Notes: generated by a model not told the origin, from the letters alone. A stretch of 59,243 bases of DNA from Minisyncoccota bacterium (GCA_009694925.1 SIBX01000001.1:1-59243), one strand, 5' to 3'. Counted from the stretch's first letter, positions 7,741-59,152 are shown. Program-made: numbers and translations.

Positions 7741-7774
7741 AGTGCCACCCCAGCTTTACGCTAGTAGTGGCACT
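7741..7774. terminator. GC hairpin at the left edge of GC island A
   Basis: agtgccac-(18 nt)-gtggcact. It lies 17 nt downstream of the stop of the minus-strand 7792..8004 ORF. T-run is weak. Confidence 0.5.
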
Positions 7775-7791
7775 TGGACTCCCCGAGATTT

Positions 7792-8004
7792 TCAACTAAG
7801 GATTGTAACACTCCCGTTGGGCTGGAAATATGGCTCGCAGTCCGTATTCATCCTGTGTCCAAGAACTGCGCCGCACTGAGGACAGGTCACATTGGAATGA
7901 TCCCAGCATTGGCAGTTTTGGACAGTGCACCGGTCAAATGTGCCAACCCAGGAACAGGTGCACATGATCCTGGTCTTCAGCTCACATTCCTCTTTTACCG
8001 CCAT
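7792..8004 (-). CDS. GC-rich orphan micro-protein, 70 aa, 9 Cys (zinc-ribbon-like)
   Basis: GGAGGTG lies 5 nt upstream of ATG 8004. Sequence MAVKEECELKTRIMCTCSWVGTFDRCTVQNCQCWDHSNVTCPQCGAVLGH... has CxC, CxC and CxxC pairs. Own promoter and hairpin. Confidence 0.55.
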   Translation of the reverse strand: MAVKEECELKTRIMCTCSWVGTFDRCTVQNCQCWDHSNVTCPQCGAVLGHRMNTDCEPYFQPNGSVTILS

Positions 8005-8046
8005 TCTGTCACCTCCCAAACTTAGAGATAGGAAGCCTCTCTTAAA

Positions 8047-8075
8047 ATTATCAACTCTATTTCTTAAAAAATCAA
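8047..8075 (-). promoter_or_regulatory. predicted sigma70-type promoter for island A ORF
   Basis: Minus strand: TTGATT (8075-8070), 17 nt spacer, GATAAT (8052-8047). Divergent from the rnpB promoter. Confidence 0.5.
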
Positions 8076-8078
8076 GAT

Positions 8079-8107
8079 TTGTATATTTTTTATATTTATG
8101 GTATAAT
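8079..8107 (+). promoter_or_regulatory. predicted promoter of rnpB
   Basis: TTGTAT, 17 nt spacer, TATAAT. The -10 box ends 6 nt before the predicted P1 5' end. Confidence 0.6.
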
Positions 8108-8113
8108 TCTCAA

Positions 8114-8474
8114 TGTCGCTTAGGTGATTACGCAATACCTTAAAAATATTGTGAGGAAAGTCTGGACTCCTATCTCGCGAGAAATCGCGGGTAAACGTAC
8201 CGGTTAAAAGCCGGCTAAGTCAGAAAGTAATTTCTGGTTTAAGAGGTGCGAAAAGTGACGCCCAAAGACGAAAGAATTTGGGAGTCCGCTTGCGGACTAA
8301 TCTCTTCTATATTGAAGGAAGAGAGTGCAACGGCTAAATTCCTTACGAGGTGCAAGATCGTGCTCTAATTTAAAAGTTAGAGAGAATCGCTTGAGCTTGA
8401 AAGTAATTTCAGGCCTAGATAAATTATCATCATCCATTTGCAAGAATGGCACAGAATCCGGCTTATTAGCGACA
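8114..8474 (+). ncRNA. rnpB: RNase P RNA, bacterial type A
   Basis: GAGGAAAGTCTGGACTC (P4 5' strand, 8153-) and ACAGAATCCGGCTTAT (P4 3' strand, 8451-). P1 pairs tgtcgct (8114-8120) with agcgaca (8468-8474). A terminator follows. Confidence 0.9.
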
Positions 8475-8483
8475 AAAACAATA

Positions 8484-8516: not shown

Positions 8517-8603
8517 GACTATTAAGATTGCTTTTAAGCTAACTGTCCGTTACCATATTACACAGCTCTTGGGACCACACAGCTTCTCAAGCTGGAGAAA
8601 GTC

Positions 8604-8789
8604 TTGGTGGAAAGGGGAAGGCGTTTGGCTGTCGGTCTGTTTCGGATGGTGATCGGAGTCTTTTCAAAGGCTCCAGCGCATGAGGGAGAAGAGAGGACAA
8701 CGGCTCTCAGGGTCTGTCTCGTGGCAGCCCTCGGTACGGTCCTCATCATGTATTTCAGCGAGGGTGGGCACATGTTCCATCCGAACTGA
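8604..8789 (+). CDS. GC-rich orphan ORF, 61 aa, two hydrophobic segments (tentative)
   Basis: GGAG (8594-8597) lies 6 nt before TTG or 9 nt before GTG. Sequence MVERGRRLAVGLFRMVIGVFSK...ALRVCLVAALGTVLIMYF. A strong terminator starts 28 nt after the stop. Non-ATG start and weak promoter. Confidence 0.35.
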   Translation: MVERGRRLAVGLFRMVIGVFSKAPAHEGEERTTALRVCLVAALGTVLIMYFSEGGHMFHPN

Positions 8790-8816
8790 AGCACAAAATA
8801 ATCTCCGTCCACGCTT

Positions 8817-8857
8817 CGGCGCGTCTCACTTTGATAGTGGAACGCGCCGTTTTTTTT
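8817..8857 (+). terminator. intrinsic terminator closing island B1
   Basis: cggcgcgt-(17 nt)-acgcgccg, a perfect 8-bp stem followed by T8. Confidence 0.75.
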
Positions 8858-8859
8858 GT

Positions 8860-8917
8860 AAAAAAAGACCACCTTCGCTTGAATATTTTATATTAAGCTT
8901 GGGTGGTTTTTGGTCTT
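8860..8917 (-). terminator. terminator-like hairpin plus T7 after the 8930..9151 ORF
   Basis: Minus strand reads aagacc..ccacc..ggtgg tcttttttt. It converges on the plus-strand terminator at 8817-8857. Confidence 0.5.
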
Positions 8918-8929
8918 CGACAATAGTCA

Positions 8930-9151
8930 TTATTGAATACTGCCGGATTGAAAAAGTATCGCTTCTGGCCTCAGCTTGTCTGCTCTTTCTTTGCAGATTA
9001 CAGAGCAAAATGGCCTTTTGCATTTGCCGACATAATAGAGGCTGTCGACTGGGATTACTGCTTTACATTCAGTGCAATCGTGTCTGACTTTGGCCATATG
9101 ATGTTCTGGAACCAGATCATCGTCTTCGTATCCTCCAGCGCATCCGCACAT
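8930..9151 (-). CDS. GC-rich orphan micro-protein, 73 aa, FCS/TRASH-like zinc finger
   Basis: GGGAGGAA lies 8 nt upstream of the ATG. ...HDCTECKAVIPVDSLYYVGKCKRPFCSVICKE fits C-x2-C-x19-FCS-x2-C. Confidence 0.55.
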   Translation of the reverse strand: MCGCAGGYEDDDLVPEHHMAKVRHDCTECKAVIPVDSLYYVGKCKRPFCSVICKERADKLRPEAILFQSGSIQ

Positions 9152-9200
9152 CAGAGTTTCCTCCCATGTTTGTGACCGCCATAAGACCAGTGCTTTCTAT

Positions 9201-9248: not shown

Positions 9249-9302
9249 GAGTCCGGTTCAGAATTTTATCTGATACCGGACTCCTGCCCCGCCGTAGCGG
9301 GG
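9249..9302 (-). terminator. tandem hairpins terminating the 9315..9530 ORF
   Basis: gagtccggt-(17 nt)-accggactc plus ccccgc-cgta-gcgggg. On the minus strand they are followed by tttcattttt. Confidence 0.6.
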
Positions 9303-9314
9303 ACTTATTCGCTT

Positions 9315-9530
9315 TCAGGCGGTGGCGACGGCGAGTTGACGCTCGTCGACCATCTCCGTGATCGTCGGAGCCGAGAAGCGCCGGATGAGATCCAGTCCGC
9401 CCGGCTTCCTGCCACCAGCCGCGATGATCATCTGCGCGATGAGCCCGCGAGTGGTCGGAGCACCCCGGAAAGTCCGGATCTCGCAACGGCACTCACCGCT
9501 CACCCTGCATGCCCTTGAGTCGCAAATCAT
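9315..9530 (-). CDS. GC-rich orphan micro-protein, 71 aa, N-terminal Cys cluster
   Basis: MICDSRACRVSGECRCEIRTF... (C-x4-C-x5-C-x-C). Weak SD GGGGAAAG 6 nt upstream. Consensus promoter and terminator hairpins flank it. Confidence 0.45.
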   Translation of the reverse strand: MICDSRACRVSGECRCEIRTFRGAPTTRGLIAQMIIAAGGRKPGGLDLIRRFSAPTITEMVDERQLAVATA

Positions 9531-9622
9531 TTCAGTCTTTCCCCGATTGCCATTCTAGCCTCGTGTTACCGAGCTAGAGGACTGTGAGTGAGTAGGGCCA
9601 ATCCCTTATCACTTACTTTATC

Positions 9623-11928: not shown

Positions 11929-11957
11929 TTGACAAAATTTTTTATTGGGAGTAAATT
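11929..11957 (+). promoter_or_regulatory. predicted promoter of island D
   Basis: TTGACA, 17 nt spacer, TAAATT. Followed by an approximately 100-nt GC-rich leader. Confidence 0.5.
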
Positions 11958-12068
11958 AATATTTAGTACACGATTCGGTGTGTAAGCCGGATCAACAACA
12001 GAGATTCGCAATTCGAGAGAGGGAGGGTTTCTCTTTAGCCCGCTTTTGTGGGCAGAAGGAATTTTCTC

Positions 12069-12584
12069 ATGAAGGCCTTGATGTTGGTTCTGGCGGTGCT
12101 CCTCGTGGGAGCCTCGGCAGGAGCTGTCTCTTCGGCAACGTCGGCGGAACCGACCACTCTGAAGATGGTCGATCCGTTCGTCTCGGCGACCGTCACGGTG
12201 AACGGCGTCGTGGTGGAGGTGGAGTTCGTGGATCTCTCCACGGGCCTCACGCTCACGACGACGAATCCGGCTCTCGTCGCGATGGCTAGCGATTACGTGA
12301 GCGATCCGGATACGTCATCTGCACGCTTCACCAAGGATGTCAGCGACGGCAACGGGGGCAAGAAGAAGGTCGAGATGACCATCACGGTCACCAAGCGATC
12401 CGAAGAGTCCGGCAAGGAATTCCTCAGGCGCTTCGAGAAGCGTTGCGAGGACGCCATCTCTTCTGGTTGGGAGCCCGTCGTCACGCCGACGTCGAACGTC
12501 TACGACTCGAACCGGCCGGTCCTCGACGTCGTCCATCTCTACGACAGGGACGACCCGCCTTCGGACATCGGCAACGCTGTCTGA
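12069..12584 (+). CDS. GC-rich orphan secreted protein (171 aa)
   Basis: GAAGGAA lies 8 nt upstream of the ATG. Signal peptide MKALMLVLAVLLVGASAGAVSSATSA. Codons overwhelmingly end in G/C. A strong terminator follows directly. Confidence 0.7.
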   Translation: MKALMLVLAVLLVGASAGAVSSATSAEPTTLKMVDPFVSATVTVNGVVVEVEFVDLSTGLTLTTTNPALVAMASDYVSDPDTSSARFTKDVSDGNGGKKKVEMTITVTKRSEESGKEFLRRFEKRCEDAISSGWEPVVTPTSNVYDSNRPVLDVVHLYDRDDPPSDIGNAV

Positions 12585-12589
12585 ATGCC

Positions 12590-12637
12590 GACCCCCACTT
12601 TGCAAGCCAAGACTTGCGAGTGGGGGTCATTTTTTTA
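12590..12637 (+). terminator. intrinsic terminator of island D
   Basis: gacccccact-(19 nt)-agtgggggtc followed by a, T7. Confidence 0.85.
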
Positions 12638-12654
12638 TTTCATACTTTTTGTTT

Positions 12655-13835: not shown

Positions 13836-13859
13836 AAATCAAAGATTTACATCTTTAAA

Positions 13860-13889
13860 CTATGGCCTATCTACTATGGCCTATGGCCT
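13860..13889 (+). repeat. four tandem heptamers CTATGGC/CTATCTA/CTATGGC/CTATGGC followed by a T-run
   Basis: Near-identical to the array at 53001-53030 (aactatggccta..ctatggcctatggcctttttt). Confidence 0.7.
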
Positions 13890-13912
13890 TTTTTTATTGT
13901 AAGATTTATTTA

Positions 13913-16055: not shown

Positions 16056-17510
16056 ATGGATGCACTTAGAGAAGAAAGAATCAAAAAACTAAATTCACTT
16101 CAGAATGCTGGAATAGACGCATATCCTCCAAGAATAAAAAGAGATTTTGAAATAAATTTAGTTATTTCTGATTTTGATAAATTTATTAAAGCTAAGAAAA
16201 AAATTTCACTAGTCGGGCGCCTAGTCGGCTTAAGAGTTCAGGGGGCATTATTTTTTGCTGACCTCAAGGACGAATCAGGTAAAATACAAATTTTAGGTAA
16301 AAAAGATAATTTAAAAAATTTTGATATTTTTAAAGACACTATAGATATTGGAGACTTTATCGAAGTGTCCGGTATTCCTTTTGTTACAAAAAGAGGAGAG
16401 AAAAGCCTAGAAGCAAAATCTATCAGAATAATAGTTAAAAGCTTGCGCCCAATCCCTTCTGATTGGTATGGGATTTCTGATATTGAGCTAAGATTAAGAA
16501 AAAGATATTTAGATATTTTAGCCAGTGCTGAAATAAAAGAATTATTTAAAAAGAAAAGTATTTTTTGGGCAACTTTCAGAGACGAACTCAAAAAAGAAGG
16601 ATTTTTAGAAGTTGAAACTCCTATTTTAGAAACTACTCCAGGAGGGGCAGATGCAGAACCGTTTAAAACTCATCATAATGCCCTAGACACAGATTTTTAT
16701 TTAAGAATTTCTTTAGAGATTTCTTTGAAAAAATTATTAGTTGCCGGATATGAAAAAGTCTTTGAGATCGGCAGGATTTTTAGAAACGAAGGCATAGACG
16801 CCGAACACTTACAAGACTATACCCAGATAGAATTCTATTGGGCCTATAAAGATTACAACGATTTAATGAAATTCATTGAACCGCTTTATAAGAAAATTAT
16901 AAAAAATACTTTCGGAAGTTTAAAAACTGAATGGCATGGGCAAAAAATAGATTGGGGCAAAAAATGGCCAAAAATTTCCTATTACGATCTTTTTAGAGAA
17001 AAGTTAGGCATCGATTTAGAAAAAGCTTCAACTGCCGACCTAGAGAAGAAAGTCAGAATTTTAAATCTAAAAATAGAGACAAATTCAAATCGCGGAAGAT
17101 TAATAGATGTTCTTTTCAAAACAATTCGCAAAGAAATTATCCAGCCAGTATTTTTAATCGACCAGCCAGCAGAACTTGAGCCATTAGCCAAGCGCAATCC
17201 AGCCTCTCCTCATAAAGTTGAAAGGATGCAGATTATTGCTTGCGGAACAGAGCTTGGTAAGGGATTTTCAGAGGCCAATGATCCGTTAGACCAGCGAGCC
17301 AGATTTGAAGAGCAGATGAAAATGAGGGAAGCCGGAGATAAAGAAGCTCAGATGTTGGACGAAGAGTTTTTAGAAGCTCTTGAATATGGAATGCCTCCAA
17401 CTGCCGGATTTGGTATTTCTGAACGCTTGTTTGCGGTTTTAGCCGACAAACCGATTCGAGAATGTGTATTTTTCCCCTTAATGAAAAGAGCTCCTAAAAA
17501 AGAAGACTAG
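16056..17510 (+). CDS. lysS: lysyl-tRNA synthetase, class II
   Basis: OB-fold N-terminus, FLEVETPIL (motif 1), RNEG, and the GFGISERL class II motif 3 region. Confidence 0.93.
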   Translation: MDALREERIKKLNSLQNAGIDAYPPRIKRDFEINLVISDFDKFIKAKKKISLVGRLVGLRVQGALFFADLKDESGKIQILGKKDNLKNFDIFKDTIDIGDFIEVSGIPFVTKRGEKSLEAKSIRIIVKSLRPIPSDWYGISDIELRLRKRYLDILASAEIKELFKKKSIFWATFRDELKKEGFLEVETPILETTPGGADAEPFKTHHNALDTDFYLRISLEISLKKLLVAGYEKVFEIGRIFRNEGIDAEHLQDYTQIEFYWAYKDYNDLMKFIEPLYKKIIKNTFGSLKTEWHGQKIDWGKKWPKISYYDLFREKLGIDLEKASTADLEKKVRILNLKIETNSNRGRLIDVLFKTIRKEIIQPVFLIDQPAELEPLAKRNPASPHKVERMQIIACGTELGKGFSEANDPLDQRARFEEQMKMREAGDKEAQMLDEEFLEALEYGMPPTAGFGISERLFAVLADKPIRECVFFPLMKRAPKKED

Positions 17511-17531: not shown

Positions 17532-17561
17532 TTGACAATATATTGATTTAGGGAATAAAAT
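17532..17561 (+). promoter_or_regulatory. near-consensus promoter of island E
   Basis: TTGACA, 18 nt spacer, TAAAAT. Confidence 0.6.
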
Positions 17562-17617
17562 TATGTTCTATGCGTCAAAAGGTGGCGCAAAGACAGACTT
17601 TGGTTTGGGAGATAGAA

Positions 17618-17872
17618 ATGTCTGGAAGGAAGAAGGCGGTTGGTCCAGTTGAGTCTGGGGAGACACAAGAAAAAGTCCGCAAGATCAGTTCGTGTAGGCT
17701 TTGTGAGGGAACCGGCAAGGTTCCTCTCCGTTGCGGTGGCAAGTCTGAATGTGCTTGCACTTCTTCGACTAACAAGTCGAAGCGCGCTGCACTCAATCCG
17801 AGACACCTTTCTCTGACTACTCGTGGGGCGAACTTTCACGCCCTGCAACGCGAACGTAGCCACCCGTCCTGA
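17618..17872 (+). CDS. GC-rich orphan micro-protein, 84 aa, CxxCxGxG Cys cluster
   Basis: GGGAGA lies 5 nt upstream of the ATG. ...KISSCRLCEGTGKVPLRCGGKSECACTSS. An alternative in-frame ATG at 17570 sits right at the predicted TSS (leaderless option). Confidence 0.5.
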   Translation: MSGRKKAVGPVESGETQEKVRKISSCRLCEGTGKVPLRCGGKSECACTSSTNKSKRAALNPRHLSLTTRGANFHALQRERSHPS

Positions 17873-17898
17873 TCTGATATCTGTCTTTCAAGAAGTTC

Positions 17899-17930
17899 CA
17901 GCCCGGCTTTCCGAAAAGGAAGCCGGGCTG
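17899..17930 (+). terminator. GC hairpin closing island E (no T-run)
   Basis: cagcccggctt-(10 nt)-aagccgggctg, an 11-bp stem followed by tataattg. Confidence 0.55.
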
Positions 17931-17998
17931 TATAATTGATAAGTACCTCTTGTCATCCCCGAGACATCGGGGATCCAGTCAAAAAATCAATTCAAAAA

Positions 17999-18387: not shown

Positions 18388-19683
18388 ATGCTAGATATCA
18401 AATTTATAAAAGAAAACGCTGATTTAGTCCAAAAAGTCAGCGAAGAAAAAGGCTATAAGGTAGACGTCTCTGAAACTTTAAAGCTTTATGGTGAACAGAA
18501 TTCAATTTTGCAAAAAATAGAAAGCCTAAGAAAAGAAAGAAATGAGCTTTCCGCATTATCAAAAAATTCTAAGCCCACAGAAGAGCATATTAAGCGCGGC
18601 AAAGAAATTAAATTAGAAATTACACACCTAGAAGAATCTTTTAAAAAAGCAGAAGACGATTTTTTAGTTTCAGTTAAAAAAATTCCCAATATTTATTCCG
18701 AAGATGTTCCAAAGGGAAAATCTGAAAATGAAAATGTTGTAGTTAAAACAGTTGGCGAAATCCCAAAATTTAAATTTACCCCTAAGAATCATTGGCAATT
18801 GGGCGAAGCTAAGCATTGGATTGATAAGGAAAGGGCCACTAAAGTTGCCGGCGCGCGCTTTGCTTATCTAATGGGTGATTTTGTGAGATTAGAATGGGCC
18901 CTAATGCGTTTTGCTATGGATATTTTAACCGATGAAAAAATATTAAAGAAAATAATCAAAGCTAATAATTTAAAAGTTTCTTCGAAAGTCTTTATTCCAG
19001 TTCTTCCTCCATATATGATCAAAACCGAACAGTATGATGCTATGGATAGGCTTGAACCAAGAGAAGAAAGATATAAAATCGAAGGTGAAGATCTTTGGCT
19101 CCAAGGATCTGCTGAGCACGTTTTGGGCAGTATGCATTCTGAGGAAATTTTTAACGAAGCAGATCTTCCTTTAAGATATGTTGGTTTTGCCACCTCTTTT
19201 AGAAAAGAGGCTGGAAGTTATGGAAAAGATATGGAGGGCATCATCCGTCTCCACCAGTTTAATAAAATGGAGTTAGAAAGTTTTTCCGTAAAAGAAAACG
19301 GTATGCAGGAACATTTATTCTTTGTGGCTATTCAGGAATATTTAATGAAAGCGTTAGAGCTTCCTTATAGAGTGGTTATGAAGTGCACCGCCGATATCGG
19401 CAAACCTAACGCCAGAGGTATTGATATAGATGTCTGGCTTCCAGGACAAAATAAATATCGCGAGACTCACACGGCTGACTATATGACCGATTATCAGGCC
19501 CGCCGTTTAAAGACACGCGTCAGGAGAGCCGATAATTCAGTTGAATTAATCCATACCAACGACGCCACCGCGCTTTCCGAAAGGCCCCTTATAGCCATCT
19601 TAGAAAATAATCAAAGAGAAGACGGAACAATAGAAATTCCAAAAGTTTTGCGACCGTACATGCTTAAGAAAAAATTTATTTAA
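18388..19683 (+). CDS. serS: seryl-tRNA synthetase
   Basis: N-terminal coiled-coil arm MLDIKFIKEN...; FRKEAGSYGKD and RLHQFNK class II motifs. Confidence 0.93.
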   Translation: MLDIKFIKENADLVQKVSEEKGYKVDVSETLKLYGEQNSILQKIESLRKERNELSALSKNSKPTEEHIKRGKEIKLEITHLEESFKKAEDDFLVSVKKIPNIYSEDVPKGKSENENVVVKTVGEIPKFKFTPKNHWQLGEAKHWIDKERATKVAGARFAYLMGDFVRLEWALMRFAMDILTDEKILKKIIKANNLKVSSKVFIPVLPPYMIKTEQYDAMDRLEPREERYKIEGEDLWLQGSAEHVLGSMHSEEIFNEADLPLRYVGFATSFRKEAGSYGKDMEGIIRLHQFNKMELESFSVKENGMQEHLFFVAIQEYLMKALELPYRVVMKCTADIGKPNARGIDIDVWLPGQNKYRETHTADYMTDYQARRLKTRVRRADNSVELIHTNDATALSERPLIAILENNQREDGTIEIPKVLRPYMLKKKFI

Positions 19684-19687
19684 ATTT

Positions 19688-19725
19688 AAAGCGTCCAGCT
19701 GGGCTCTCCCATCTGGACGCTTTTT
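19688..19725. terminator. bidirectional terminator between serS and the island F ORF
   Basis: aaa-gcgtccag-(14 nt)-ctggacgc-ttttt. Confidence 0.8.
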
Positions 19726-19734
19726 GTATCAACA

Positions 19735-19923
19735 TCACGAACCTCCAGCCTTCTTTTTAGGAGAACCATCTCGGAAGATAAAGAACCAAAAAAGAAATAC
19801 AACGACGGGCAACAACACAGCGCAAGTAGATAGAATGTGTTCGCTATCAAAGCGGTGAAGAACGTCAGTCGCAAAGCCCATCCAGCTGCCCGGAATTGGA
19901 CACTTACTCTCCTCCTGTGGCAT
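19735..19923 (-). CDS. GC-rich orphan small membrane protein, 62 aa (C-terminal TM helix plus basic tail)
   Basis: AAGGTGGA lies 3-4 nt upstream of the ATG. MPQEESKCPIPGSWMGFATDVLHRF...CAVLLPVVVFLFWFFIFRDGSPKKKAGGS. Confidence 0.5.
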   Translation of the reverse strand: MPQEESKCPIPGSWMGFATDVLHRFDSEHILSTCAVLLPVVVFLFWFFIFRDGSPKKKAGGS

Positions 19924-20011
19924 TTTCCACCTTTTCCTTTTCTATTTGCCAATCGGTCTGTGTGCTGTTTTTCAGTCTACGACAATATTTCAAATTATTA
20001 AAGTCTTAGAT

Positions 20012-20266
20012 AAAAAAAGAACCCGGGGCCACACTGGTTGTGTGACTACCCGGGCGCAGAACAGCCCCATTCCCTAACTTTACAAGAGATTGCGATCTTA
20101 CCTAGGATCATCATCGCAGGCGTGGATTGTCGAAAAGACCAATCTGAGCGCACTTAGGGAGACTCCGAACATAACCAGACTGAAGTTCGATCTAGTTGCA
20201 GCGTCTTGTTGCCGGCAAGGAGTCTTTTCCCCTTATATCTAGCAAAGACCAGAGGGAACTTTCTGC
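20012..20266 (-). ncRNA. ORF-less GC-rich structured RNA, about 250 nt (independent sRNA or terminator-ending leader of the 62-aa ORF)
   Basis: Its promoter is at 20273-20300. Helices 20160-20166/20219-20225 and 20091-20096/20113-20118. Minus-strand terminator cccggg..cacac-aacca-gtgtg..cccggg followed by T7 (20012-20056). No ORF of 60 aa or more. Confidence 0.5.
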
Positions 20267-20272
20267 CCGTTT

Positions 20273-20329: not shown

Positions 20330-21385
20330 ATGAATAAAAAACTAAAAGTCTCCTTACTTTTCGGAGGAAAATCAGTTGAACACGAAGTTTCCATACTTTC
20401 CGCTAAAAATGTTTTTGAAGCAATTAATAAGGATAAGTATGATGTTTCCTTAATCGGTATTGATAAATCAGGTTATTGGCGATTCTTTACTGACGCAAAA
20501 ATTCTAGAGCAAAAAAGTATCAAGTCAATTGCCAAAAACCACAATGGATTCTTAAATCCAGACTGCGGAAAAGTACTAGTAAATTCAGACGTTGTTTTTC
20601 CCGTTCTTCACGGGACTTATGGCGAAGACGGCTCGGTACAGGGATTTTTAAAATTAATAAATAAGCCGTTTGTTGGTGCCGGTGTTTTGGGTTCGGCGCT
20701 CGGGATGGATAAGGAAGTTCAAAAACGGCTCTTAATCCAAGCGGAGATTACAACCGCTAAATTTTTAACTTATCAATCGTCAGAACTATCAACCATTAAC
20801 TATCACGCCATCACTACCAATCTGGACTTACCTTTTTTCATTAAGCCGGCTAATTCCGGATCGTCAGTAGGTGCATCTAAAGTTAAAAATGAGCCTGAAT
20901 TTATGCCAGCTATTTATGAGGCATTTAAATATGATAATAAAATTTTAATTGAAGAATTTATAGACGGCAGGGAAATAGAATGTTCGGTTTTGGGCAATAG
21001 CGAGCCAATCGCATCAATTCCCGGCGAGGTTGTGTCTAATCATGAATTTTATTCTTATGAAGCAAAATACTTAGACGAAAACGGAGCCGTTTTAAAAATT
21101 CCAGCCAAATTAAATAAGATAACAGCTAAAAAAATTCAAGAATTAGCAATTAAAACTTTTAAAGTATTAGAATGTTCAAGTATGGGACGCGTTGATTTCT
21201 TTTTAAAAAGAGATGGTCAGATTTTTATAAACGAGATTAATACTATTCCAGGATTTACCTCAATCAGTATGTATCCCAAACTTTGGGAAGCAACTGGCAT
21301 TAGTTATTCAGAATTAATAGATAGGCTGATTGAATTGGCTATAGAAAAATTTGAAAAGGATAGTAAGATAAAAACTTCTTATTAA
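20330..21385 (+). CDS. ddl: D-alanine--D-alanine ligase
   Basis: LFGGKSVEHEVS, HGTYGEDGSVQG, and ATP-grasp NEINTIPGFT motifs. Confidence 0.92.
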   Translation: MNKKLKVSLLFGGKSVEHEVSILSAKNVFEAINKDKYDVSLIGIDKSGYWRFFTDAKILEQKSIKSIAKNHNGFLNPDCGKVLVNSDVVFPVLHGTYGEDGSVQGFLKLINKPFVGAGVLGSALGMDKEVQKRLLIQAEITTAKFLTYQSSELSTINYHAITTNLDLPFFIKPANSGSSVGASKVKNEPEFMPAIYEAFKYDNKILIEEFIDGREIECSVLGNSEPIASIPGEVVSNHEFYSYEAKYLDENGAVLKIPAKLNKITAKKIQELAIKTFKVLECSSMGRVDFFLKRDGQIFINEINTIPGFTSISMYPKLWEATGISYSELIDRLIELAIEKFEKDSKIKTSY

Positions 21386-21391: not shown

Positions 21392-21441
21392 AGAGTCGCT
21401 AGAGGTCTTCGTGCAGAACTTGCACGAGACATAGCGACTCT
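21392..21441. terminator. long bidirectional hairpin between ddl and island G
   Basis: agagtcgcta-...tcgtgca-gaac-tgcacga...-tagcgactct, with T-rich flanks on both strands. Confidence 0.7.
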
Positions 21442-21490
21442 GTTGAAGGATTTATTTTTTCGTGAGTTCCTTCATTCTCACGGCGAGGTT

Positions 21491-22009
21491 CTAGCTCGCG
21501 CGCTTCTCCGATCGGGTCGAGGGGATTTTCCCGACTCGACGCAGTTCCTTGATGGCGCTCTTGCGAACCATGAGCGGCGCCCTGGATCGATCCAGTCGAT
21601 CGAGCTCCGCTATGGTCCGGCAAACCGAACCCAAGAGCAGTTTTTCGACTCCCTGGAGGCGAAGCTTCTCGGCTTCTGCATCTGCGAGCTTCACCCTTGT
21701 CTCCGCCAATATTGCCCTGTCATCCTCCAGTCGCCGGATGATTCCGACAATGTGCACGATCTGCTCTTCGGTCGGCGGACCCTGGAGAAGACCGAGAGTC
21801 GTCTGGACCTCGCCAGCCAAGCTCTCGTCGGTCTGCTCGAACTCCGGATCTTTGAAAACCGGAATTCTTGTGACCGTAACCTGTTCCGGGGTCAAAGAGA
21901 TTTGAACATTTCTCACGGTTCTCTCCCATTGTTCCGGCTTCATCCCAAATAGGGAATCAGCTTGGTTGTTCTGTTTTTGGTGCCGAGATAACTCCCAGCT
22001 ACCTTCCAT
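21491..22009 (-). CDS. GC-rich orphan protein (172 aa as listed; true start uncertain)
   Basis: A long ORF spans the whole island with a helical/coiled-coil-like C-terminal half (RLEDDRAILAETRVKLADAEAEKLRLQGVEKLL). The listed ATG 22009 is only 1 nt from the -10 box, so Met23 (21943) may be the real start. Confidence 0.55.
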   Translation of the reverse strand: MEGSWELSRHQKQNNQADSLFGMKPEQWERTVRNVQISLTPEQVTVTRIPVFKDPEFEQTDESLAGEVQTTLGLLQGPPTEEQIVHIVGIIRRLEDDRAILAETRVKLADAEAEKLRLQGVEKLLLGSVCRTIAELDRLDRSRAPLMVRKSAIKELRRVGKIPSTRSEKRAS

Positions 22010-22010
22010 A

Positions 22011-33483: not shown

Positions 33484-33508
33484 CGAAACCAAGAAGGAGC
33501 AAGAGACA

Positions 33509-34234: not shown

Positions 34235-34273
34235 CTTGTAATGAGTGGTGTCGCGCACAGCGACACTGAAAAA

Positions 34274-46307: not shown

Positions 46308-46309
46308 AG

Positions 46310-46375
46310 CCCGTAGTAAGAATTCGGCAAATAAAAATTACTCGCCAAAGGCGAGTAATTGAATTTCACTGCGGG
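46310..46375. repeat. hairpin repeat E3 (GTAGT-hairpin family) at the left edge of island K
   Basis: cccgtagtaagaattc-...attactcgcc-aaa-ggcgagtaat...-gaatttcactgcggg. Starts 3 nt after the murG stop. Confidence 0.6.
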
Positions 46376-46377
46376 AT

Positions 46378-46826
46378 AAAAAAACGGCTCCGAGAGAAGT
46401 GCATGCGACTGTGTCGCAATTACAACCCCCGGAGCCTTACTCGACAACCCTTTCTTCACCTATTGGGGATTCCTATCAGCCTGGTTCGAAACCCTAGCTG
46501 ATCTGATGCCGCCATTGCCCAAAAACGCGGGCGTTCGGTGAACAGGTACGAGAGACTGCTGATCTCAGCCAATTCTCGACGAGCGGGTTATGAGAGCGGG
46601 GATGGTGGCTTGGTTTCAGCCAAGCCGGGGTCCTTTTCCTCAAACGTGACAACCCCCCACTAAGTCGAGAAAAACCGATCGCAATCTCTGTGTCCCTTTC
46701 TGGAGTTGTTTACCCCATAGGAGAAACCTGAGCCAGGCTTGCTTTTTACGAACAGATACACTGGCTTTCTCTGTTCGTTACCGCACTTTTACTCTAGTTG
46801 AGATCACGGCAACTCTCAACCATTAC
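46378..46826 (-). ncRNA. large ORF-less GC-rich structured RNA candidate, about 450 nt
   Basis: A consensus promoter lies at 46833-46861. Terminator ggctccg-(37 nt)-cggagcc followed by g, T7 on the minus strand (46378-46436). Helices 46573-46580/46664-46671, 46607-46613/46620-46626, 46750-46755/46771-46776 and 46797-46803/46814-46820. No internal ORF of 60 aa or more; the only listed ORF touching the interval (46250..46459, minus) merely enters its terminator end from outside. Confidence 0.55.
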
Positions 46827-46832
46827 TCTTCC

Positions 46833-46861: not shown

Positions 46862-46900
46862 TAGATATTGTGGAAAACTGCTAAAAACCCAATGAAATAA

Positions 46901-46967
46901 ACCCAGTAGTAGAAATTAGACAGTTGACTCTGTCGCCCTGCGACAAGTCTAATTTTCACTACTGGGT
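46901..46967. repeat. hairpin repeat E2 (GTAGT-hairpin family) at the right edge of island K
   Basis: acccagtagtagaaattagac-(25 nt with gtcgc-cct-gcgac)-gtctaattttcactactgggt. It is the reverse-orientation homologue of E1 and carries compensatory stem changes. Confidence 0.7.
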
Positions 46968-50722: not shown

Positions 50723-50872
50723 TTTTTTATTTAAAATAAATCACAAAAGGGTATTAATAGTATAAAAAACAAGAAATCATATTTAGTTAATTAAAGTAGC
50801 TTATCTGTCGCAAAAGGTATATTGTGCGACATGTGATAGGTATTGTTCCCCGTAGAATAAGCGTAGCTTTCC

Positions 50873-51078
50873 AAAAATTAAAAAAGCCCTCCTTACCTCT
50901 TTCGAGCGTAGAATTGGGGCTCCTTCTGATCAGTGTTTCCAGTTGTTGGCAACTTGGTTTCCGAATTGGGTCGCCATAAAGTTTTTAAATCCTTCATACG
51001 CTTCCTTTTCTTACCTCAGAGCCCTAACAACGGCCTCATGCTTGTCGGGACTCTAATCAACTACTTTTCTCGTAGACT
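50873..51078 (-). ncRNA. GC-rich transcript, about 205 nt, downstream of the ABC transporter gene (sRNA, 3' UTR or micro-ORF mRNA)
   Basis: Predicted promoter at 51085-51113. Minus-strand hairpin agcccc..ctc-gaaa-gag..agggct followed by T-rich tail (50873-50921). No ORF of 60 aa or more. Confidence 0.4.
50893..50997 (-). CDS. possible 34-aa micro-ORF in island L
   Basis: AAGGAAG lies 3 nt upstream of the ATG. MKDLKTLWRPNSETKLPTTGNTDQKEPQFYARKR. The stop lies inside the terminator stem. Very tentative. Confidence 0.2.
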   Translation of the reverse strand: MKDLKTLWRPNSETKLPTTGNTDQKEPQFYARKR

Positions 51079-51084
51079 CTTGGT

Positions 51085-51113
51085 TTTATATTTAACATTG
51101 CTCCTTTAGTAAA
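51085..51113 (-). promoter_or_regulatory. predicted promoter of the island L transcript
   Basis: Minus strand: TTTACT, 17 nt spacer, TATAAA. Confidence 0.4.
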
Positions 51114-51143
51114 TATTTTTCTGGTTGATAAAATATTTATTTT

Positions 51144-52943: not shown

Positions 52944-53000
52944 AAATTAAGAAGAAATTATACGTTTTATTTGAAAAATTAGCAATCCTCGTTCTTTTAA

Positions 53001-53030
53001 CTATGGCCTAGTTTCTATGGCCTATGGCCT
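53001..53030 (+). repeat. four tandem heptamers CTATGGC/CTAGTTT/CTATGGC/CTATGGC followed by a T-run
   Basis: Near-identical to 13860-13889, including the flanking aa...tttttt. Confidence 0.7.
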
Positions 53031-53058
53031 TTTTTATTAGTCACTATATACTTTTCAT

Positions 53059-53904: not shown

Positions 53905-54195
53905 TATTTCTCCCCTCGACAAGCAATGCTTGGAGCGAGGGGGCAAGGAAAGGCTCGGAGACTAGTCGGCGGAAGAGAGACCGCTGTGGGGCGATGGCGG
54001 CGAAACGGGGAATGCCCATACAGAGTTCATCATCCGTCTACCAGTCTCCGAGCACAGAATTTCAAAGAACAGGAGTGGGAGATGAACTTGCGCCATAGCT
54101 AGCCCGTGCCCACGGTAACCATGGCATGCCTACGTGCTTCTCTCATCTCAGGAGGATTCTTTGCGTGCCCACTCGTCTCCCGCTCCTGTTCGTGC
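53905..54195 (+). ncRNA. ORF-less GC-rich structured RNA candidate, about 290 nt (strand tentative)
   Basis: Helices 53912-53918/53936-53942, 53954-53963/54043-54052 (10 bp) and 54067-54082/54176-54191 (16 bp). Three G-T pairs are tolerated only on the plus strand versus one on the minus. No clear promoter or T-run. Confidence 0.4.
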
Positions 54196-54292
54196 TGAAT
54201 TAATAATAGCATATTGATTTTTATAAAAAATAAAAAAAGTGGATAAGTATTATAATAATTATTCCAACTGATATCCTGCGGATAAGTTTATT

Positions 54293-54514
54293 AAAAAAAG
54301 AAACCGTCCGATGATATGCGCGTAGCGCATTCATGGACGGTGGTTCGGTTAAGAATGGGAGGGAGAACTTGCAAAATTGTTTCTCTGTGATTCGGAGCAG
54401 GTTTCCGTGTTGACTACAAACCTTGAGTTGCCTCATGATCTGTGTTCTTTCGGTAATTATGCGCCCTCTCACTAGAGTTATCTCTCGCAATCCCCCCCCC
54501 TCCCAGTATTAGCT
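54293..54514 (-). ncRNA. GC-rich structured RNA candidate, about 220 nt, starting with a GGGAG9 tract
   Basis: Promoter at 54521-54549. Minus-strand terminator accgtcc-(25 nt)-ggacggt followed by ttc, T7 (54293-54341). The G-rich 5' end pairs with ctccctccc (54357-54363/54498-54504). Confidence 0.5.
54492..54500. repeat. C9/G9 homopolymer tract
   Basis: Nine consecutive C on the plus strand, about 14-22 nt downstream of the predicted minus-strand TSS. Confidence 0.9.
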
Positions 54515-54520
54515 GTAGAA

Positions 54521-54549
54521 ATTATAATCCCATTTTTTAAAATATGCAA
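54521..54549 (-). promoter_or_regulatory. near-consensus promoter of the 54293..54514 RNA
   Basis: Minus strand: TTGCAT (54549-54544), 17 nt spacer, TATAAT (54526-54521). Confidence 0.6.
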
Positions 54550-54619: not shown

Positions 54620-54693
54620 TGGGGAATCGTCTAATGGTAGGACAGAGGCCTTTGAAGCCTTTAATTGGGGTTCGAATCCCTGTTCCCCAGCCA
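54620..54693 (+). tRNA. tRNA-Gln (anticodon TTG), CCA encoded
   Basis: Hand-folded cloverleaf: tggggaa/ttcccca acceptor stem, gtct/ggac D stem, gaggc-cTTTGaa-gcctt anticodon arm, tgggg-ttcgaat-ccctg T arm, and discriminator g plus cca. Confidence 0.93.
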
Positions 54694-54909: not shown

Positions 54910-55161
54910 ATGCCCTATTTCGTCTATATACTAGAGTGCTCTGATAAATCCCTATATACTGGCATAACTAATAATTTAGAAAAAAGAATTAAAAACCATA
55001 ACGAATCTAAAGTAGGAGCAAGGTATACAAAAGCTAGAAGACCGGTAGTTCTAAGATGCTTCGAAAAAGTAAAAACCAAAAGTCTAGCTCTTAAAAGAGA
55101 AATCGAGATCAAGTCTTGGACGAGAGAAAAGAAATTAAACCTAATAAGAAATATTTCTTAA
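54910..55161 (+). CDS. GIY-YIG nuclease superfamily protein (83 aa, stand-alone)
   Basis: YFVYILECSDKSLYTGITNNLEKRIKNHN...ARYTKARRP...LKREIEIK. Confidence 0.8.
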   Translation: MPYFVYILECSDKSLYTGITNNLEKRIKNHNESKVGARYTKARRPVVLRCFEKVKTKSLALKREIEIKSWTREKKLNLIRNIS

Positions 55162-55320
55162 AATTTCACACCTTGACGAAATTGTGATACATTGTTTATA
55201 AATGAGAAAACCAGTTTTTAGGGCATTATTAATACTTATTCTATTTATTATAATGGTAATATTATTTTATCTATTCTCTCTTTCTGTTTTTTTTGATGGC
55301 CTTTTAAAATTATAACCAAT

Positions 55321-55455
55321 ATGGAAGAAGGGCCAATATACCCAATACGCATTAATAAATATTTAGCGCTAAAACAGCACTCAACTCGCCGTGGAGCAGA
55401 TGAGCTTATTTCTCGTATAAATGGCGGTTTTGAATTACTAATTTTTAAAGTTTAA
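55321..55455 (+). pseudogene. truncated duplicate of the S4-domain N-terminus of the 57550..58257 pseudouridine synthase
   Basis: MEEGPIYPIRINKYLALKQHSTRRGADELISR... versus MQDKPLYPMRINKYLALKQYSTRRGADELIST... The promoter-like ttaaaatttc..cttgacgaaa.tgtgataca.tgttt is also duplicated (55158-55197 versus 57507-57547). Confidence 0.6.
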
Positions 55456-57501: not shown

Positions 57502-57549
57502 ATTTATTAAAATTTCCCCACTTGACGAAAGTGTGATACAGTGTTTTCT

Positions 57550-58257
57550 ATGCAAGATAAGCCACTATATCCGATGAGGATAAATAAATATCTAGCTTTA
57601 AAACAATACTCAACTCGCAGAGGCGCAGATGAGCTTATTTCGACTAAAAAAGTTTTTATTAATGGCAAATTAGCTGTTTTAGGCGATAAGGTTCAGGAGA
57701 AAGATAAAGTAGAAGTTAAGGGGCATAGCGCCATAAAAAATTATGTTTATTACGCATACAACAAGCCGGTTGGAGTAATCACCCATTCACCCCAAGAAGG
57801 AGAAGATGAAATTAAAGACATATTTCCTATACCTGGAGTTTTTCCAATTGGTAGATTAGATAAAAATTCCAGTGGTTTAATTATTTTAACTAATGACGGC
57901 AGAATCACCGACAAACTTCTAAATCCAGAATATTCCCACGAAAAAGAATATTTAGTTAAAACTAGAGATAAAATTCGCTCTAATTTTAAAGAAAAAATGG
58001 AAGCCGGAGTTGATATTGATGGCTATATAACCAAAAACTGCAAAGTAGATGTTTTAAATGAGAATACTTTCAGAATAACTTTAACCGAAGGTAAAAAACA
58101 TCAAATCAGAAGAATGTGTGTTGCTCTCTTTAATGAAGTTTATGATCTTAGAAGAACTAGAATAATGAACATTCCTCTTGGTCGTCTCTACGCAGGAGAA
58201 TATCGCCCCATAGAAGGTAAAGAACTTTCAATCTTCCTAAAAAGCTTAGGATTTTAA
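57550..58257 (+). CDS. RsuA/RluF-family pseudouridine synthase with S4 domain
   Basis: MRINKYLA...RR.AD.LI (S4 domain), the GRLDKNSSGLIILTNDG catalytic Asp motif, and KKHQIRRM. Confidence 0.88.
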   Translation: MQDKPLYPMRINKYLALKQYSTRRGADELISTKKVFINGKLAVLGDKVQEKDKVEVKGHSAIKNYVYYAYNKPVGVITHSPQEGEDEIKDIFPIPGVFPIGRLDKNSSGLIILTNDGRITDKLLNPEYSHEKEYLVKTRDKIRSNFKEKMEAGVDIDGYITKNCKVDVLNENTFRITLTEGKKHQIRRMCVALFNEVYDLRRTRIMNIPLGRLYAGEYRPIEGKELSIFLKSLGF

Positions 58258-58270
58258 AATGTATAAATTA

Positions 58271-58308
58271 AAAAACACTCGCTCGTCCGTATAGACGAGG
58301 AGTGTTTT
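58271..58308. terminator. bidirectional terminator between the pseudouridine synthase gene and the BtpA-like gene
   Basis: aaaaa-cactc(g)ctcgtc-cgtata-gacgag-gagtg-tttt. Confidence 0.75.
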
Positions 58309-58311
58309 GTG

Positions 58312-59082
58312 TTATCTAGATTTTGTAGGCATCACCCCTACCATCCTGCGAACCAAAACAGGATCAAGCTCTGTATGCGACTTACTAACCCCAGTAGCTA
58401 CAAGAAAAATATCAGCATTAGGAAGATATAGTTGAACATTGTCTGGTGTAATCCCGCTCGCTATCGCTAGTGCGTGATTCCCGATTGCTCCTCTTATTGC
58501 TCGAATCTTTTCCGGATCTGGTGGCGATCCGGTTGCTTCACCGCTCGTAGTAATGACTTCCATGAATGGAATAGCAAGTCTCGCGACGCGAGTCAAATCT
58601 CTCACCGGAGTTTGATGCTTGAAGGCCACGCCTCCAAAAATCAGCGGCAATCCAGGAATTCCTCCTCCCTTAATTGCCATATTAACCCTCGCAATCCTAC
58701 AAGGATCTTCTTCGTCTTCGCGGATGCCACCGTCATCAATCCAAACAGCGAATATTTTGTGCATTACTGCCAATCGAATCGCATCTTCACCCGAAAGATC
58801 TAAGAAGTTAACTCCGATTTCCAATCCTTGTCCCGGTCCCTTAGAGGTTTTAAACTCTTTTCTAACAGCAAAGAAGTGTTGCAGAAGAGTTGCGTATGTC
58901 ATTCCATGACCAATTAGAAAAACACACTTCACCCCAGCATCAAAAGCAATTCCTACATTCCTCATAACCTGCGATCTATTCTCGGCATGAATCACGATGG
59001 CCAACACATGATTAGTGTTGATACCATCTCTTAAACAGAAAGTTGCGCCGGACAAAATCATTCTGGGATCCATTTGGCTCAT
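58312..59082 (-). CDS. BtpA/SgcQ-family TIM-barrel protein
   Basis: VIHAEN, GVNFL, IFGGVAFKH, and ITTSGEATGSPPD...AIASGITPDNV...ADIFLVATGVSK resemble BtpA. AGGAGG lies directly upstream. G+C is visibly higher than in neighbouring genes. Confidence 0.75.
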   Translation of the reverse strand: MSQMDPRMILSGATFCLRDGINTNHVLAIVIHAENRSQVMRNVGIAFDAGVKCVFLIGHGMTYATLLQHFFAVRKEFKTSKGPGQGLEIGVNFLDLSGEDAIRLAVMHKIFAVWIDDGGIREDEEDPCRIARVNMAIKGGGIPGLPLIFGGVAFKHQTPVRDLTRVARLAIPFMEVITTSGEATGSPPDPEKIRAIRGAIGNHALAIASGITPDNVQLYLPNADIFLVATGVSKSHTELDPVLVRRMVGVMPTKSR

Positions 59083-59152
59083 GCCTCCTGTGTTTGTTTT
59101 TTTATTTGTGCTATCTAAAATATATCAACTATTCAAACTAAATCAATAGAAA

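Follow-up and report, generated by a model that had tools for sequence, protein, structure and literature searches.

The present study concerns the whole 59,243-bp contig (hereafter the window) of a Candidatus Pacebacteria metagenome-assembled genome (MAG; EXS49), a member of Paceibacteria in the candidate phyla radiation (CPR)/Patescibacteria, and the discrete GC-rich islands in its intergenic gaps. We propose that these islands constitute a lineage-specific compartment of autonomous micro-genes, the GC-richness of which is maintained at the transcript level and the cargo of which turns over, and we assign this interpretation a probability of approximately 0.55. A comparison with syntenic loci showed purifying selection on many of the predicted units and a high G+C content that is a stable equilibrium confined to the putatively transcribed body. 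Turnover of cargo was shown for two units, U5 and U9, and we infer that it may be a general property.

Discrete GC-rich islands in an AT-rich window

The overall G+C content of the window is 35.1% and that of its background is 33.0%. Segmentation with a two-state hidden Markov model (HMM) identified 15 high-GC segments, each with 51-62% G+C and summing to 5.45 kb:

7742-8017, 52.5% G+C
8561-8849, 55.4% G+C
9276-9605, 62.4% G+C
11976-12628, 59.7% G+C
17581-17980, 52.5% G+C
19459-19588, within SerRS, disregarded
20022-20269, 52.0% G+C
21477-22007, 56.3% G+C
24547-24825, 51.3% G+C
29089-29381, 55.6% G+C
33032-33298, 59.2% G+C
33482-34307, 57.0% G+C
46385-46742, 54.5% G+C
53910-54197, 58.0% G+C
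58453-58734, 51.8% G+C

Since non-island windows of 300 nt (n=476) had a mean G+C fraction of 0.330 with a standard deviation of 0.044 (maximum, 0.453), the islands lie 4-6.5 standard deviations above the background. All intergenic gaps of at least 360 nt except 50723-51143 had 41-52% G+C; short gaps had 16-28%. The housekeeping genes of the window include LysRS, SerRS, Ddl, Alr, YchF, MsrA, GluRS, an MraY-type transferase, FtsW, MurG, ScpA/B, a clamp loader, and BipA.

A preliminary description of this DNA listed 14 such islands. The computed G+C profile revealed that separate islands are real, and 12 of the 14 hold; however, 50873-51078 (43% G+C) is not an island, and 58312-59095 is an ordinary 256-aa open reading frame (ORF) with 45% G+C and a weak BtpA match in the Pfam scan. 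The G+C content of roughly 55-60% given for the islands was slightly high: the intervals claimed had only 43-60% because several merged two units or took in AT-rich spacers (8560-9170, 19735-20266, 28919-29387, 33030-34318, and 53905-54514). The two G+C counts made by hand, 36/60 at 12121-12180 and 10/60 at 16141-16200, were exact, and the assignment to Patescibacteria was right, with the ORF of unit U13 (see below) being MST03973.1 of Candidatus Pacebacteria.

Promoter-to-terminator units

Approximately 17 predicted promoter-to-terminator units were resolved when both strands of each island were read. Approximately 10 are coding and 7 non-coding, which agrees with the earlier estimate that about half of the islands carry ORFs led by Shine-Dalgarno (SD) motifs:

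7742-8030, minus strand: U1, micro-gene; ORF 7792-8004, 70 aa, the longest ORF beginning with TTG at 8019
8545-8860, plus strand: U2; two-helix membrane micro-ORF of 61 aa, 8604-8789, TTG start
8900-9195, minus strand: U3, micro-gene; ORF 8930-9151, 73 aa, Cys-rich, CxxC ... CxxxxCxxxC
9250-9615, minus strand: U4, micro-gene; ORF 9315-9530, 71 aa, N-terminal Cys cluster
11965-12640, plus strand: U5, orphan gene; ORF 12069-12584, 171 aa, N-terminal textbook signal peptide
17570-17935, plus strand: U6, micro-gene; ORF 17618-17872, 84 aa, CxxCxGxG zinc knuckle and CxC
19686-19990, minus strand: U7, micro-gene; ORF 19735-19923, 62 aa, single transmembrane helix
20015-20268, minus strand: U8, predicted non-coding RNA of ~250 nt; 24-bp helix closing the 5'/3' ends, internal hairpins, intrinsic terminator
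21392-22012, minus strand: U9, orphan gene; ORF 21491-22009, 172 aa, the true start possibly being Met 21943
24540-24830, plus strand: U10, predicted non-coding RNA of ~290 nt upstream of ychF; 5'/3' closing helix, four internal hairpins, terminator
28919-29025, plus strand: U11a, short hairpin-rich unit of ~105 nt; terminator AAAGCCGAGC followed by T6
29088-29387, plus strand: U11b, predicted non-coding RNA of ~300 nt; multibranch domain inside a long closing helix, two hairpins, terminator
33010-33300, plus strand: U12; ORF 33048-33239, 63 aa, SD AGGAGG, C...CxxC
33482-34310, plus strand: U13, orphan gene; ORF 33509-34234, 241 aa, SD AAGGAG; G+C fraction at codon positions 1, 2, and 3 (GC123) 0.63/0.42/0.68
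46372-46828, minus strand: U14, predicted non-coding RNA of ~455 nt between murG and gltX; terminator GGCUCCG...CGGAGCC followed by U7
53905-54200, plus strand (from folding alone): U16a, candidate non-coding RNA of ~300 nt; three long helical domains
54290-54520, minus strand: U16b, candidate non-coding RNA of ~230 nt, read from the sequence; -10 box TATAAT at ~54525-54530

Promoters and terminators were assigned by consensus scans and direct reading of the sequence, and the ends given are predicted ends. The suggestion that most islands follow a near-consensus promoter and end in a GC hairpin with a T-run was borne out in part. Four of the five best promoter matches (at least 11/12), several of which have an extended -10 TG, directly adjoin islands (9652(-) at U4, 22040(-) at U9, 17532(+) at U6, and 46861(-) at U14), and most units have a G+C hairpin and then a T-run at the 3' end; however, promoter consensus matches overall are not enriched in the AT-rich window (61 vs 55.5±7.7 and 76 vs 68.4±9.0). 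The composition changes within a few bases of the predicted transcription start, and the sense strands of the units are slightly G-rich. Approximately 10 ORFs have good SD motifs upstream, and in those of U5, U9, and U13 the codon positions follow GC1>GC2<GC3, with the periodicity of genuine coding sequence. The approximately seven non-coding units have no credible ORF and strong predicted folding.

An all-against-all comparison confirmed that the islands share no obvious sequence with one another. When the unit ends were compared in the same manner, no shared junction or att motif and no direct repeats were detected, and the 3' hairpins were mutually unrelated. The reported absence of integrase, transposase, and reverse transcriptase genes is consistent with our Pfam scans, which covered the window except for the ORFs of 1-5513 and a few other small ones.

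Conservation in the same gaps of relatives

Syntenic loci were obtained from independent assemblies via SerRS homologues. The closest relative, L092, has a nucleotide identity of 83-90% in housekeeping genes and a 4-fold-site identity of 63%. L081 has 94% aa identity in SerRS and 49% identity to the window at 4-fold sites; the SerRS identities of L084, L087, and L086 are 84, 76, and 71%, respectively. GC-rich islands were present in the intergenic gaps of L081, L084, L092, and L086. The first three share the gene order of the window, and their islands occupy the same gaps, with 9 islands per 21 kb in L081, 7 in L084, and 7 in L092. In L087, the background is higher (44% G+C) and the contrast weaker. 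In other loci of AT-rich Patescibacteria, 0-7 small segments per 11-21 kb were counted, mostly 0-2.

Island homology between genomes ranges between 65 and 92% identity, and island G+C remains at 50-62% across genomes with a core G+C of 33-44%. U1, U3, U4, U6, U7/U8, and U10 are present and homologous at the same loci in relatives. The identities of the conserved units to L092 (82-92.5%) are comparable with or above those of the neighbouring housekeeping genes, against a neutral expectation of 63%. Furthermore, the micro-proteins of U2, U3, U4, and U6 are recognisable across genomes at the protein level.

The U1 product is a predicted zinc-ribbon micro-protein, C-x-C-W-x-G ... C ... CPxCG-x2-LG, containing CPQCG. 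Homologues are found in L092 (92.5% nucleotide and 93% aa identity), L081, and, as two tandem copies, L084 (63-260 and 257-487, in the orientation opposite to that of the window copy); in the alignment of these five copies from four genomes, the four Cys residues are invariant (CTC ... C ... CPQCG). U3 is 86.5% identical to L092 at the nucleotide level and has a diverged homologue at L081 1310-1564. The C-terminal RQLAVATA of U4 also occurs in L081, whose copy is 80% identical to that of L092. The U6 ORF is 82% identical to L092, its promoter and terminator are 77-96% conserved with L081, and Cys-motif micro-ORFs stand at the U6 position in L081 and L084; U6 is most likely orthologous with these micro-ORFs. 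The U2 protein has weak homology to L081 991-1197 (E 2.6e-5) and by eye resembles L092 907-1077 (GKRLC...W.LP..EEE motif), with no nucleotide homology between U2 and L092 (z 0.1).

Of the predicted RNAs, U8 is conserved in L081 and L084 (74% column identity in the alignment), and the U7/U8 gap is 68% identical to that of L092 (z 24). The body of U10 is 89.6% and its promoter 100% identical to L092, which equals or exceeds housekeeping identity; U10 is 78% identical to L081.

Orphan ORFs with 53-58% G+C, coding periodicity, and no Pfam domain were observed at L086 2486-3651, 12216-12425, and 18264-18707 and at L087 5316-6269. Since L086 and L087 (SerRS 71-76%, core G+C 40-44%) carry such ORFs, the phenomenon reaches beyond the immediate clade.

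Folding, covariation, and stationary composition

The minimum free energy (MFE) of the sense strand was compared with dinucleotide shuffles; z was -2 or lower in 14 of 15 units, with a mean of approximately -3.9, against -0.5±1.2 in 14 housekeeping segments and -4.4 in the RNase P RNA. The latter is located at 8112-8480 on the plus strand; it is a full-length match to bacterial class A, has ~41% G+C, and is 91.5% identical in L092.

The consensus structure of U8 has 64 pairs, 88.9% of which are paired in the sequences compared. Twelve pairs are changed on both sides, against 6.4±2.0 in shuffles (reached in 5/500) and 0-4 in slid controls. The U10 consensus has 82 pairs, 11 of which show compensatory changes.

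Housekeeping genes have a G+C fraction at the third codon position (GC3) of ~0.27, whereas the orthologous island ORFs (U1 and U4) have 0.53-0.80 in every genome: 0.59, 0.61, 0.66, 0.65, and 0.53 over the five copies of U1, and 0.76 in the window, 0.80 in L092, and 0.75 in L081 for U4. Between the U1 copies of the window and L081, 13 synonymous sites are unchanged and 18 changed, mostly strong-to-weak or weak-to-strong and in both directions. Changes in U8 polarised with L084 as the outgroup comprised 29 GC>AT and 21 AT>GC; decay would give ~2.4:1, as estimated from composition. Because GC3 stays high despite synonymous turnover, the islands are at a compositional equilibrium of their own and are not unameliorated imports.

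Replacement of cargo

At the distance between the window and L092, neutral DNA should still align (63% identity), and the alignment controls U6 (z 171) and the U7/U8 gap (z 24) did so. In contrast, the U5 gap (gap A; 794 vs 327 nt) has no homology with L092 (global-alignment z 2.0), nor has the U9 body (566 vs 559 nt; z 0.05). In gap A, both L092 and L081 have a membrane micro-ORF of 51 aa that is unrelated to U5, and L084 has two different ORFs there. The three ORFs that occupy the U9 gap (gap D), one each in the window, L092, and L081, are unrelated to one another (z 0.6-1.7), with no tblastx matches past the flanks. The U9 promoter and the first ~65 nt of the leader are conserved with L092 (84.6%), and the promoter is also conserved with L081.

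We initially took the lack of an alignment with L081 as replacement of U6, U9, and U11b. This was withdrawn, with 4-fold sites being only 49% identical. A comparison with L081 alone cannot separate replacement from saturation; therefore, replacement is claimed from the window-L092 comparison only and not for U11b.

Searches for known families and donors

In Rfam searches of the whole window at gathering and E≤1 thresholds, the only matches were tRNA-Gln and RNase P RNA, both outside the islands; U8, U10, U11b, and U14 searched alone gave only chance matches (E 0.2-0.44). ARAGORN detected no tmRNA in the window. The RNase P RNA scored 83 bits against an Rfam gathering score of 100 and was missed at default thresholds. 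Since a genuine RNase P RNA scores below the gathering threshold, the sensitivity of Rfam is reduced in this lineage. When JGI metagenomes were scanned for the pattern of a 20-nt conserved block of U10, only three chance hits, in high-GC contigs, were returned.

The island ORFs had no match in Pfam, PHROGs, or PADLOC. The sole database match of U13 was itself (EXS49_00160, MST03973.1), with no relative among 5.8 billion clusters, 1.84 billion representatives, or phage or plasmid records. U5 had no homologue in a JGI metagenome scan or in phage or plasmid records, and an exact-protein look-up returned nothing; U9 had no plasmid match and only a weak 34-aa match in IMG/VR. Overall, no donor was found among ~15 billion proteins, phages, plasmids, and metagenomes. 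In a profile search of the PDB for characterised CPxCG-type members, the best match had an E value of 0.14. The U1 family alignment, used as a query against proteins, retrieved no match; even the copy in the window was missed, since ORFs of this kind are not annotated. AlphaFold single-sequence models of U1 (pLDDT 48, unusable) and U13 (pLDDT 34, uninformative) were of no help.

Interpretation and alternatives

In the interpretation that we prefer, each unit would comprise an AT-rich sigma-70-type promoter, often near consensus, a GC-rich body 100-830 nt long, and in most cases a G+C hairpin terminator of its own. The approximately 10 coding bodies would encode four Cys-rich zinc-finger or zinc-ribbon proteins, two membrane proteins, one secreted protein, and three larger or unclassified orphans, and the approximately seven others would be non-coding RNAs closed by long 5'/3' helices. 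Selection on the transcript would keep G+C high, the most likely benefit being compact, stably folded, nuclease-resistant, and long-lived RNAs amid AU-rich bulk mRNA, and strong promoters would make the units abundant products. During exchange, a body would be swapped for an unrelated GC-rich gene with the flanking housekeeping genes kept, in one case together with the promoter and leader; recombination with diverged relatives via the conserved flanks would be the most likely route. At the level of a guess, the products may be small regulators with zinc fingers, secreted or envelope factors, and RNAs with regulatory roles in the episymbiotic lifestyle.

A dedicated repertoire of structured RNAs and micro-proteins was one of two explanations offered in the preliminary description, and it is upheld for most units: the same gaps are filled in relatives, U1, U2, U3, U4, and U6 are conserved at the protein level, and U8 and U10 have compensatory pair changes. 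None of the islands could be placed in a family of Rfam or Pfam, and the architecture recurs in independent assemblies. The other explanation, repeated capture from a high-GC partner or host, survives as cargo turnover only, namely in U5 and U9, which lack homology to the corresponding gap of the closest relative; import from a donor does not, with no donor found and conserved island genes keeping a stationary high GC3.

Several points weigh against the interpretation that we prefer. GC pressure is not universal, because U2 is GC-rich in two genomes but 43% in L092 (G+C fractions of 0.56, 0.51, and 0.43 in the three copies). Ordinary structural need does not require 55-60% G+C, because the RNase P RNA, itself structured and essential, has only ~41%. 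Terminator hairpins supply part of the negative z values, although they fall short of the differences of 25-40 kcal/mol. Covariation was assessed with three sequences per RNA (U8 and U10), and the comparative data span 7.6-32 kb of the window. Transcription of the units, RNA stability, and translation are predictions from the DNA. Moreover, U5, U9, and U13 have no homologue even inside the clade, which also fits import from an unsampled pool; for these three large orphans, import from an unsampled high-GC pool is a serious rival.

Extended to all islands, this rival reads as recurrent horizontal capture from a pool with ~55-60% G+C (a host, partner, or mobile element) into intergenic hot spots, with G+C as the donor signature. 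U5 and U9 were indeed replaced by unrelated sequence between close relatives, island G+C is alike (50-62%) where cores differ (33-44%), and the periodicity of the large orphans, with GC3 up to 0.81-0.85, is that of high-GC genomes. However, the respective searches found no donor for U5, U9, and U13, and a high GC3 kept despite synonymous turnover is the opposite of amelioration. Furthermore, composition boundaries fall at predicted starts and terminators rather than at arbitrary breakpoints, no integrase or transposase was found among the scanned proteins and no att-like junction motif or direct repeats among the units, and the non-coding units are equally GC-rich. We regard recurrent capture as unlikely for the islands as a whole. 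Local mutational or repair bias, caused by very strong transcription or, at recombination hot spots, by GC-biased gene conversion and acting without selection on the RNA, would account for GC-richness that spans the transcribed body whether it is coding or not, and the near-consensus promoters, the stationary composition, and the recombination of gaps shown by turnover agree with it. It is nevertheless distinctly improbable: the folding excess over dinucleotide shuffles and the compensatory pairs indicate selection on structure, and the RNase P RNA, which is presumably also well transcribed, has only ~41% G+C. To our knowledge, no transcription-linked GC-biased process of such a size exists in bacteria.

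The units may also be ordinary housekeeping RNAs or known small genes that escaped recognition in a divergent phylum (6S RNA, SRP RNA, tmRNA, leaders, or riboswitches). The RNase P RNA below its Rfam gathering threshold is a precedent, and U8 and U10 look like stand-alone conserved small RNAs. Nevertheless, ~17 units in 59 kb far exceed the handful of universal RNAs, ten units have conserved or periodic ORFs, the islands searched alone gave no sub-threshold Rfam match and ARAGORN no tmRNA, and some units are replaceable, which makes this explanation very improbable. Assembly chimeras or contamination by high-GC reads, to which the abrupt compositional switches and the MAG source might point, are scarcely credible. 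L081, L084, L092, and L086, from other samples and assemblers, show the same architecture, and L081 was identical base for base over 6.2 and 3.6 kb in two further independent sequencing runs. Islands are homologous between genomes, and the junctions fall at promoter and terminator signals. Because independent relatives hold islands in the same gaps, chimeric assembly and strain-specific insertion are excluded.

A stronger form of the interpretation that we prefer may be put forward tentatively, as possible though doubtful. In this form, the Paceibacteria clade would carry, as a second and stable compartment of composition, a few hundred strongly promoted micro-gene cassettes of ~55-60% G+C, for structured RNAs, zinc-finger micro-proteins, and membrane or secreted proteins, at the operon boundaries of a 33% G+C chromosome. 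Their G+C would be held by a transcript-level requirement undescribed in bacteria (extreme RNA longevity, or an RNA or protein function in or on a high-GC host), and they would be exchanged behind conserved promoter-leader platforms without a known recombinase or att site.

Comparison with known systems and significance

Earlier work on GC-rich non-coding RNAs concerned AT-rich hyperthermophiles. We rejected thermophily as the cause of GC-rich RNAs here because the RNase P RNA has only 41% G+C. GC-rich intergenic regions have been used to find structured non-coding RNAs in AT-rich genomes (the 'GC-IGR' strategy; PMC6429828, PMC8632094, PMC11109978). Similarly, long intergenic regions of the window are far above the AT-rich background in G+C, U8 and U10 are conserved with compensatory changes, and U11b, U14, and U16a fold far better than shuffles. 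In contrast to those RNAs, over half of the present units are protein-coding with GC-rich synonymous sites, the units account for ~10% of the sequence at approximately one per 3.5 kb, their G+C is 10-20 points above that of this genome's RNase P RNA, some are swapped between close relatives, and none belongs to an Rfam family.

Phage morons are autonomous promoter-gene-terminator units of deviant composition inserted between phage genes (PMC4378225, PMC8065619). The single-gene units described here likewise have their own predicted promoter and terminator and a composition unlike that of their neighbours; they are inserted between genes that remain intact, and relatives may have them, lack them, or have others in their place (U5 and U9). 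However, their neighbours are chromosomal housekeeping genes (LysRS, SerRS, Ddl, Alr, YchF, MurG, and GluRS) with no prophage, the island ORFs have no PHROGs match and U5 and U13 no phage-record match, and most units are vertically conserved across the clade, with many being non-coding. Gap D, with its conserved promoter and leader, retained flanks, and unrelated cargo in three genomes, resembles integron cassettes and replacement-type flexible genomic islands. Unlike integrons, the window has no integrase domain among the scanned proteins (the ORFs of 1-5513 lie outside the scan) and neither an attC-like nor any other junction motif common to the units. The units do not form an array: every site has one unit with a promoter of its own, and the terminator comes with the cargo.

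CPxCG-type zinc-finger micro-proteins are known from haloarchaea (Brz, PMC2253796; the Haloferax small proteome, PMC10117724). The predicted Cys-rich products here are also stand-alone proteins of 60-85 aa with CxxC/CPxCG knuckles (CPQCG in U1; other CxxC types in U3, U4, and U6), encoded by intergenic genes often missed by annotation. They differ in having no detectable sequence homology and no Pfam match, in their bacterial CPR host, and in being compositional outliers, which has not been reported for the archaeal genes.

CPR/Patescibacteria genomes are regarded as streamlined and compositionally uniform, with small ORFs and RNAs mostly unannotated, and no account of such islands in CPR genomes emerged from our search of the literature. 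Approximately 10% of the contig is taken up by units that are unannotated or 'hypothetical' and have the strongest promoters of the region, which suggests that these episymbionts harbour a substantial hidden set of micro-proteins and small RNAs. Two long-coexisting synonymous-site equilibria in one small genome (GC3 ~0.27 vs 0.6-0.8) are unusual and provide a natural case in which mutation bias can be separated from selection on nucleotide composition. Cargo is swapped while the promoter stays, which hints at a mechanism of exchange that needs no known mobility genes. In related genomes, G+C segmentation is a cheap finder of this gene class, and U8 and U10 are ready candidates for new RNA families.

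Details of individual units

U1 (51-52% G+C) has a strong SD motif, GGGAGGTG, and a 3' hairpin at 7744-7776. U2 (55% G+C; MFE z -2.9) has a predicted intrinsic terminator, GGCGCGT...ACGCGCC followed by T8. U3 (46% G+C) has the SD motif GGGAGGAA and the promoter TTGCGA-18-TATAAT at 9230-9201. The U4 promoter (TTGACA-18-TATAAT with TG, 9652-9623) is the sole 12/12 consensus match, and the G+C of U4 is 59-62%. U5 has GC123 of 0.58/0.45/0.81, a promoter at 11929-11957, and the terminator GACCCCCAC...GTGGGGGTC followed by T7. U6 (MFE z -3.1) has the promoter TTGACA-18-TAAAAT at 17532-17561, and its 3' hairpin overlaps the -10 box of the following gene. U7 (46% G+C; SD AAGGTGG) shares its 3' hairpin with the SerRS terminator. 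The predicted promoters of U8 (MFE z -3.7) and U9 (GC123 0.62/0.41/0.65; MFE z -6.2) are TTGTAA-16-TATTAT with TG at 20300-20273 and TTGACT-18-TATAAT at 22040-22011, respectively, and the U9 terminator is at 21392-21441. The MFE z of U10 is -3.35.

U11a (MFE z -4.0) has a promoter-like site at 28885-28912 and is not present at the matching L081 position. The closing helix of U11b is formed by GUCGGGGGGUGCAGAU... pairing with ...AUCUGCACCUCCCCGAC; its MFE is -138 kcal/mol against -97.9±5.1 in shuffles (z -7.9), and no ORF has coding periodicity. Its promoter is conserved with L081 and its body is not alignable. Between U11 and BipA lies a PIF1-like helicase gene (29432-31075, plus strand, 547 aa, ~37% G+C), which appears to be an accessory insertion next to an island because it is not at the corresponding L081 position.

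U12 (57-59% G+C; MFE z -4.7) has the promoter TTGACT-18-TATTAT at 32974-33003 and a 13-bp terminator at 33268-33297. U13 is flanked by an AT-rich 27-bp hairpin upstream and two G+C hairpins downstream; the former, at 33427-33483 between U12 and U13, has 27-nt arms that are 89% complementary and a 3-nt loop. U14 has the promoter TTGACA-17-TATACT with TG at 46861-46833, an MFE of -174 against -143.8±5.8 (z -5.3), and a longest ORF of 52 aa without periodicity. U16a has 56-58% G+C, an MFE z of -4.7, only a 58-aa ORF without periodicity, and a weak promoter and terminator. The U16b terminator is ACCGUCC...GGACGGU followed by UUUCUUUUUUU, and U16b was missed by the HMM because its G+C is only ~45%.

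Long hairpins with related stems, ACCAAGTAGTGAAAATGCGAC...GTCGCATTTCTACTACTTGGT and ACCCAGTAGTAGAAATTAGAC...GTCTAATTTTCACTACTGGGT, adjoin U11 and U14 (28818-28885, 46900-46966, and, weaker, 46309-46365). This hairpin family was rejected as a general island boundary: it has only 2-3 copies and flanks two islands.

Other observations

Ddl (20330-21385, plus strand) has 73% aa identity to L081 and L092, against 87-96% for its neighbours. Its best GTDB matches (57-59% identity) are scattered over many phyla, and an exact-protein look-up was empty. These values suggest a history of transfer or relaxed constraint for Ddl in this clade.

A 43-nt direct repeat (13852-13894 and 52993-53035, 91% identical; TCTTTAAACTATGGCCTATCTACTATGGCCTATGGCCTTTTTT, with three CTATGGCC motifs) has one copy where the adenylate kinase gene begins and another just upstream of a 255-aa gene that lacks annotation, and may be a shared operator. 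A tRNA-Gln(UUG) gene (54620-54693, plus strand) is followed by a free-standing 83-aa ORF with a GIY-YIG nuclease domain (54910-55161, plus strand). A 102-nt direct repeat with 77% identity (55320-55421 and 57549-57650) occurs once upstream of the prolyl oligopeptidase gene and once where the pseudouridine synthase gene begins.

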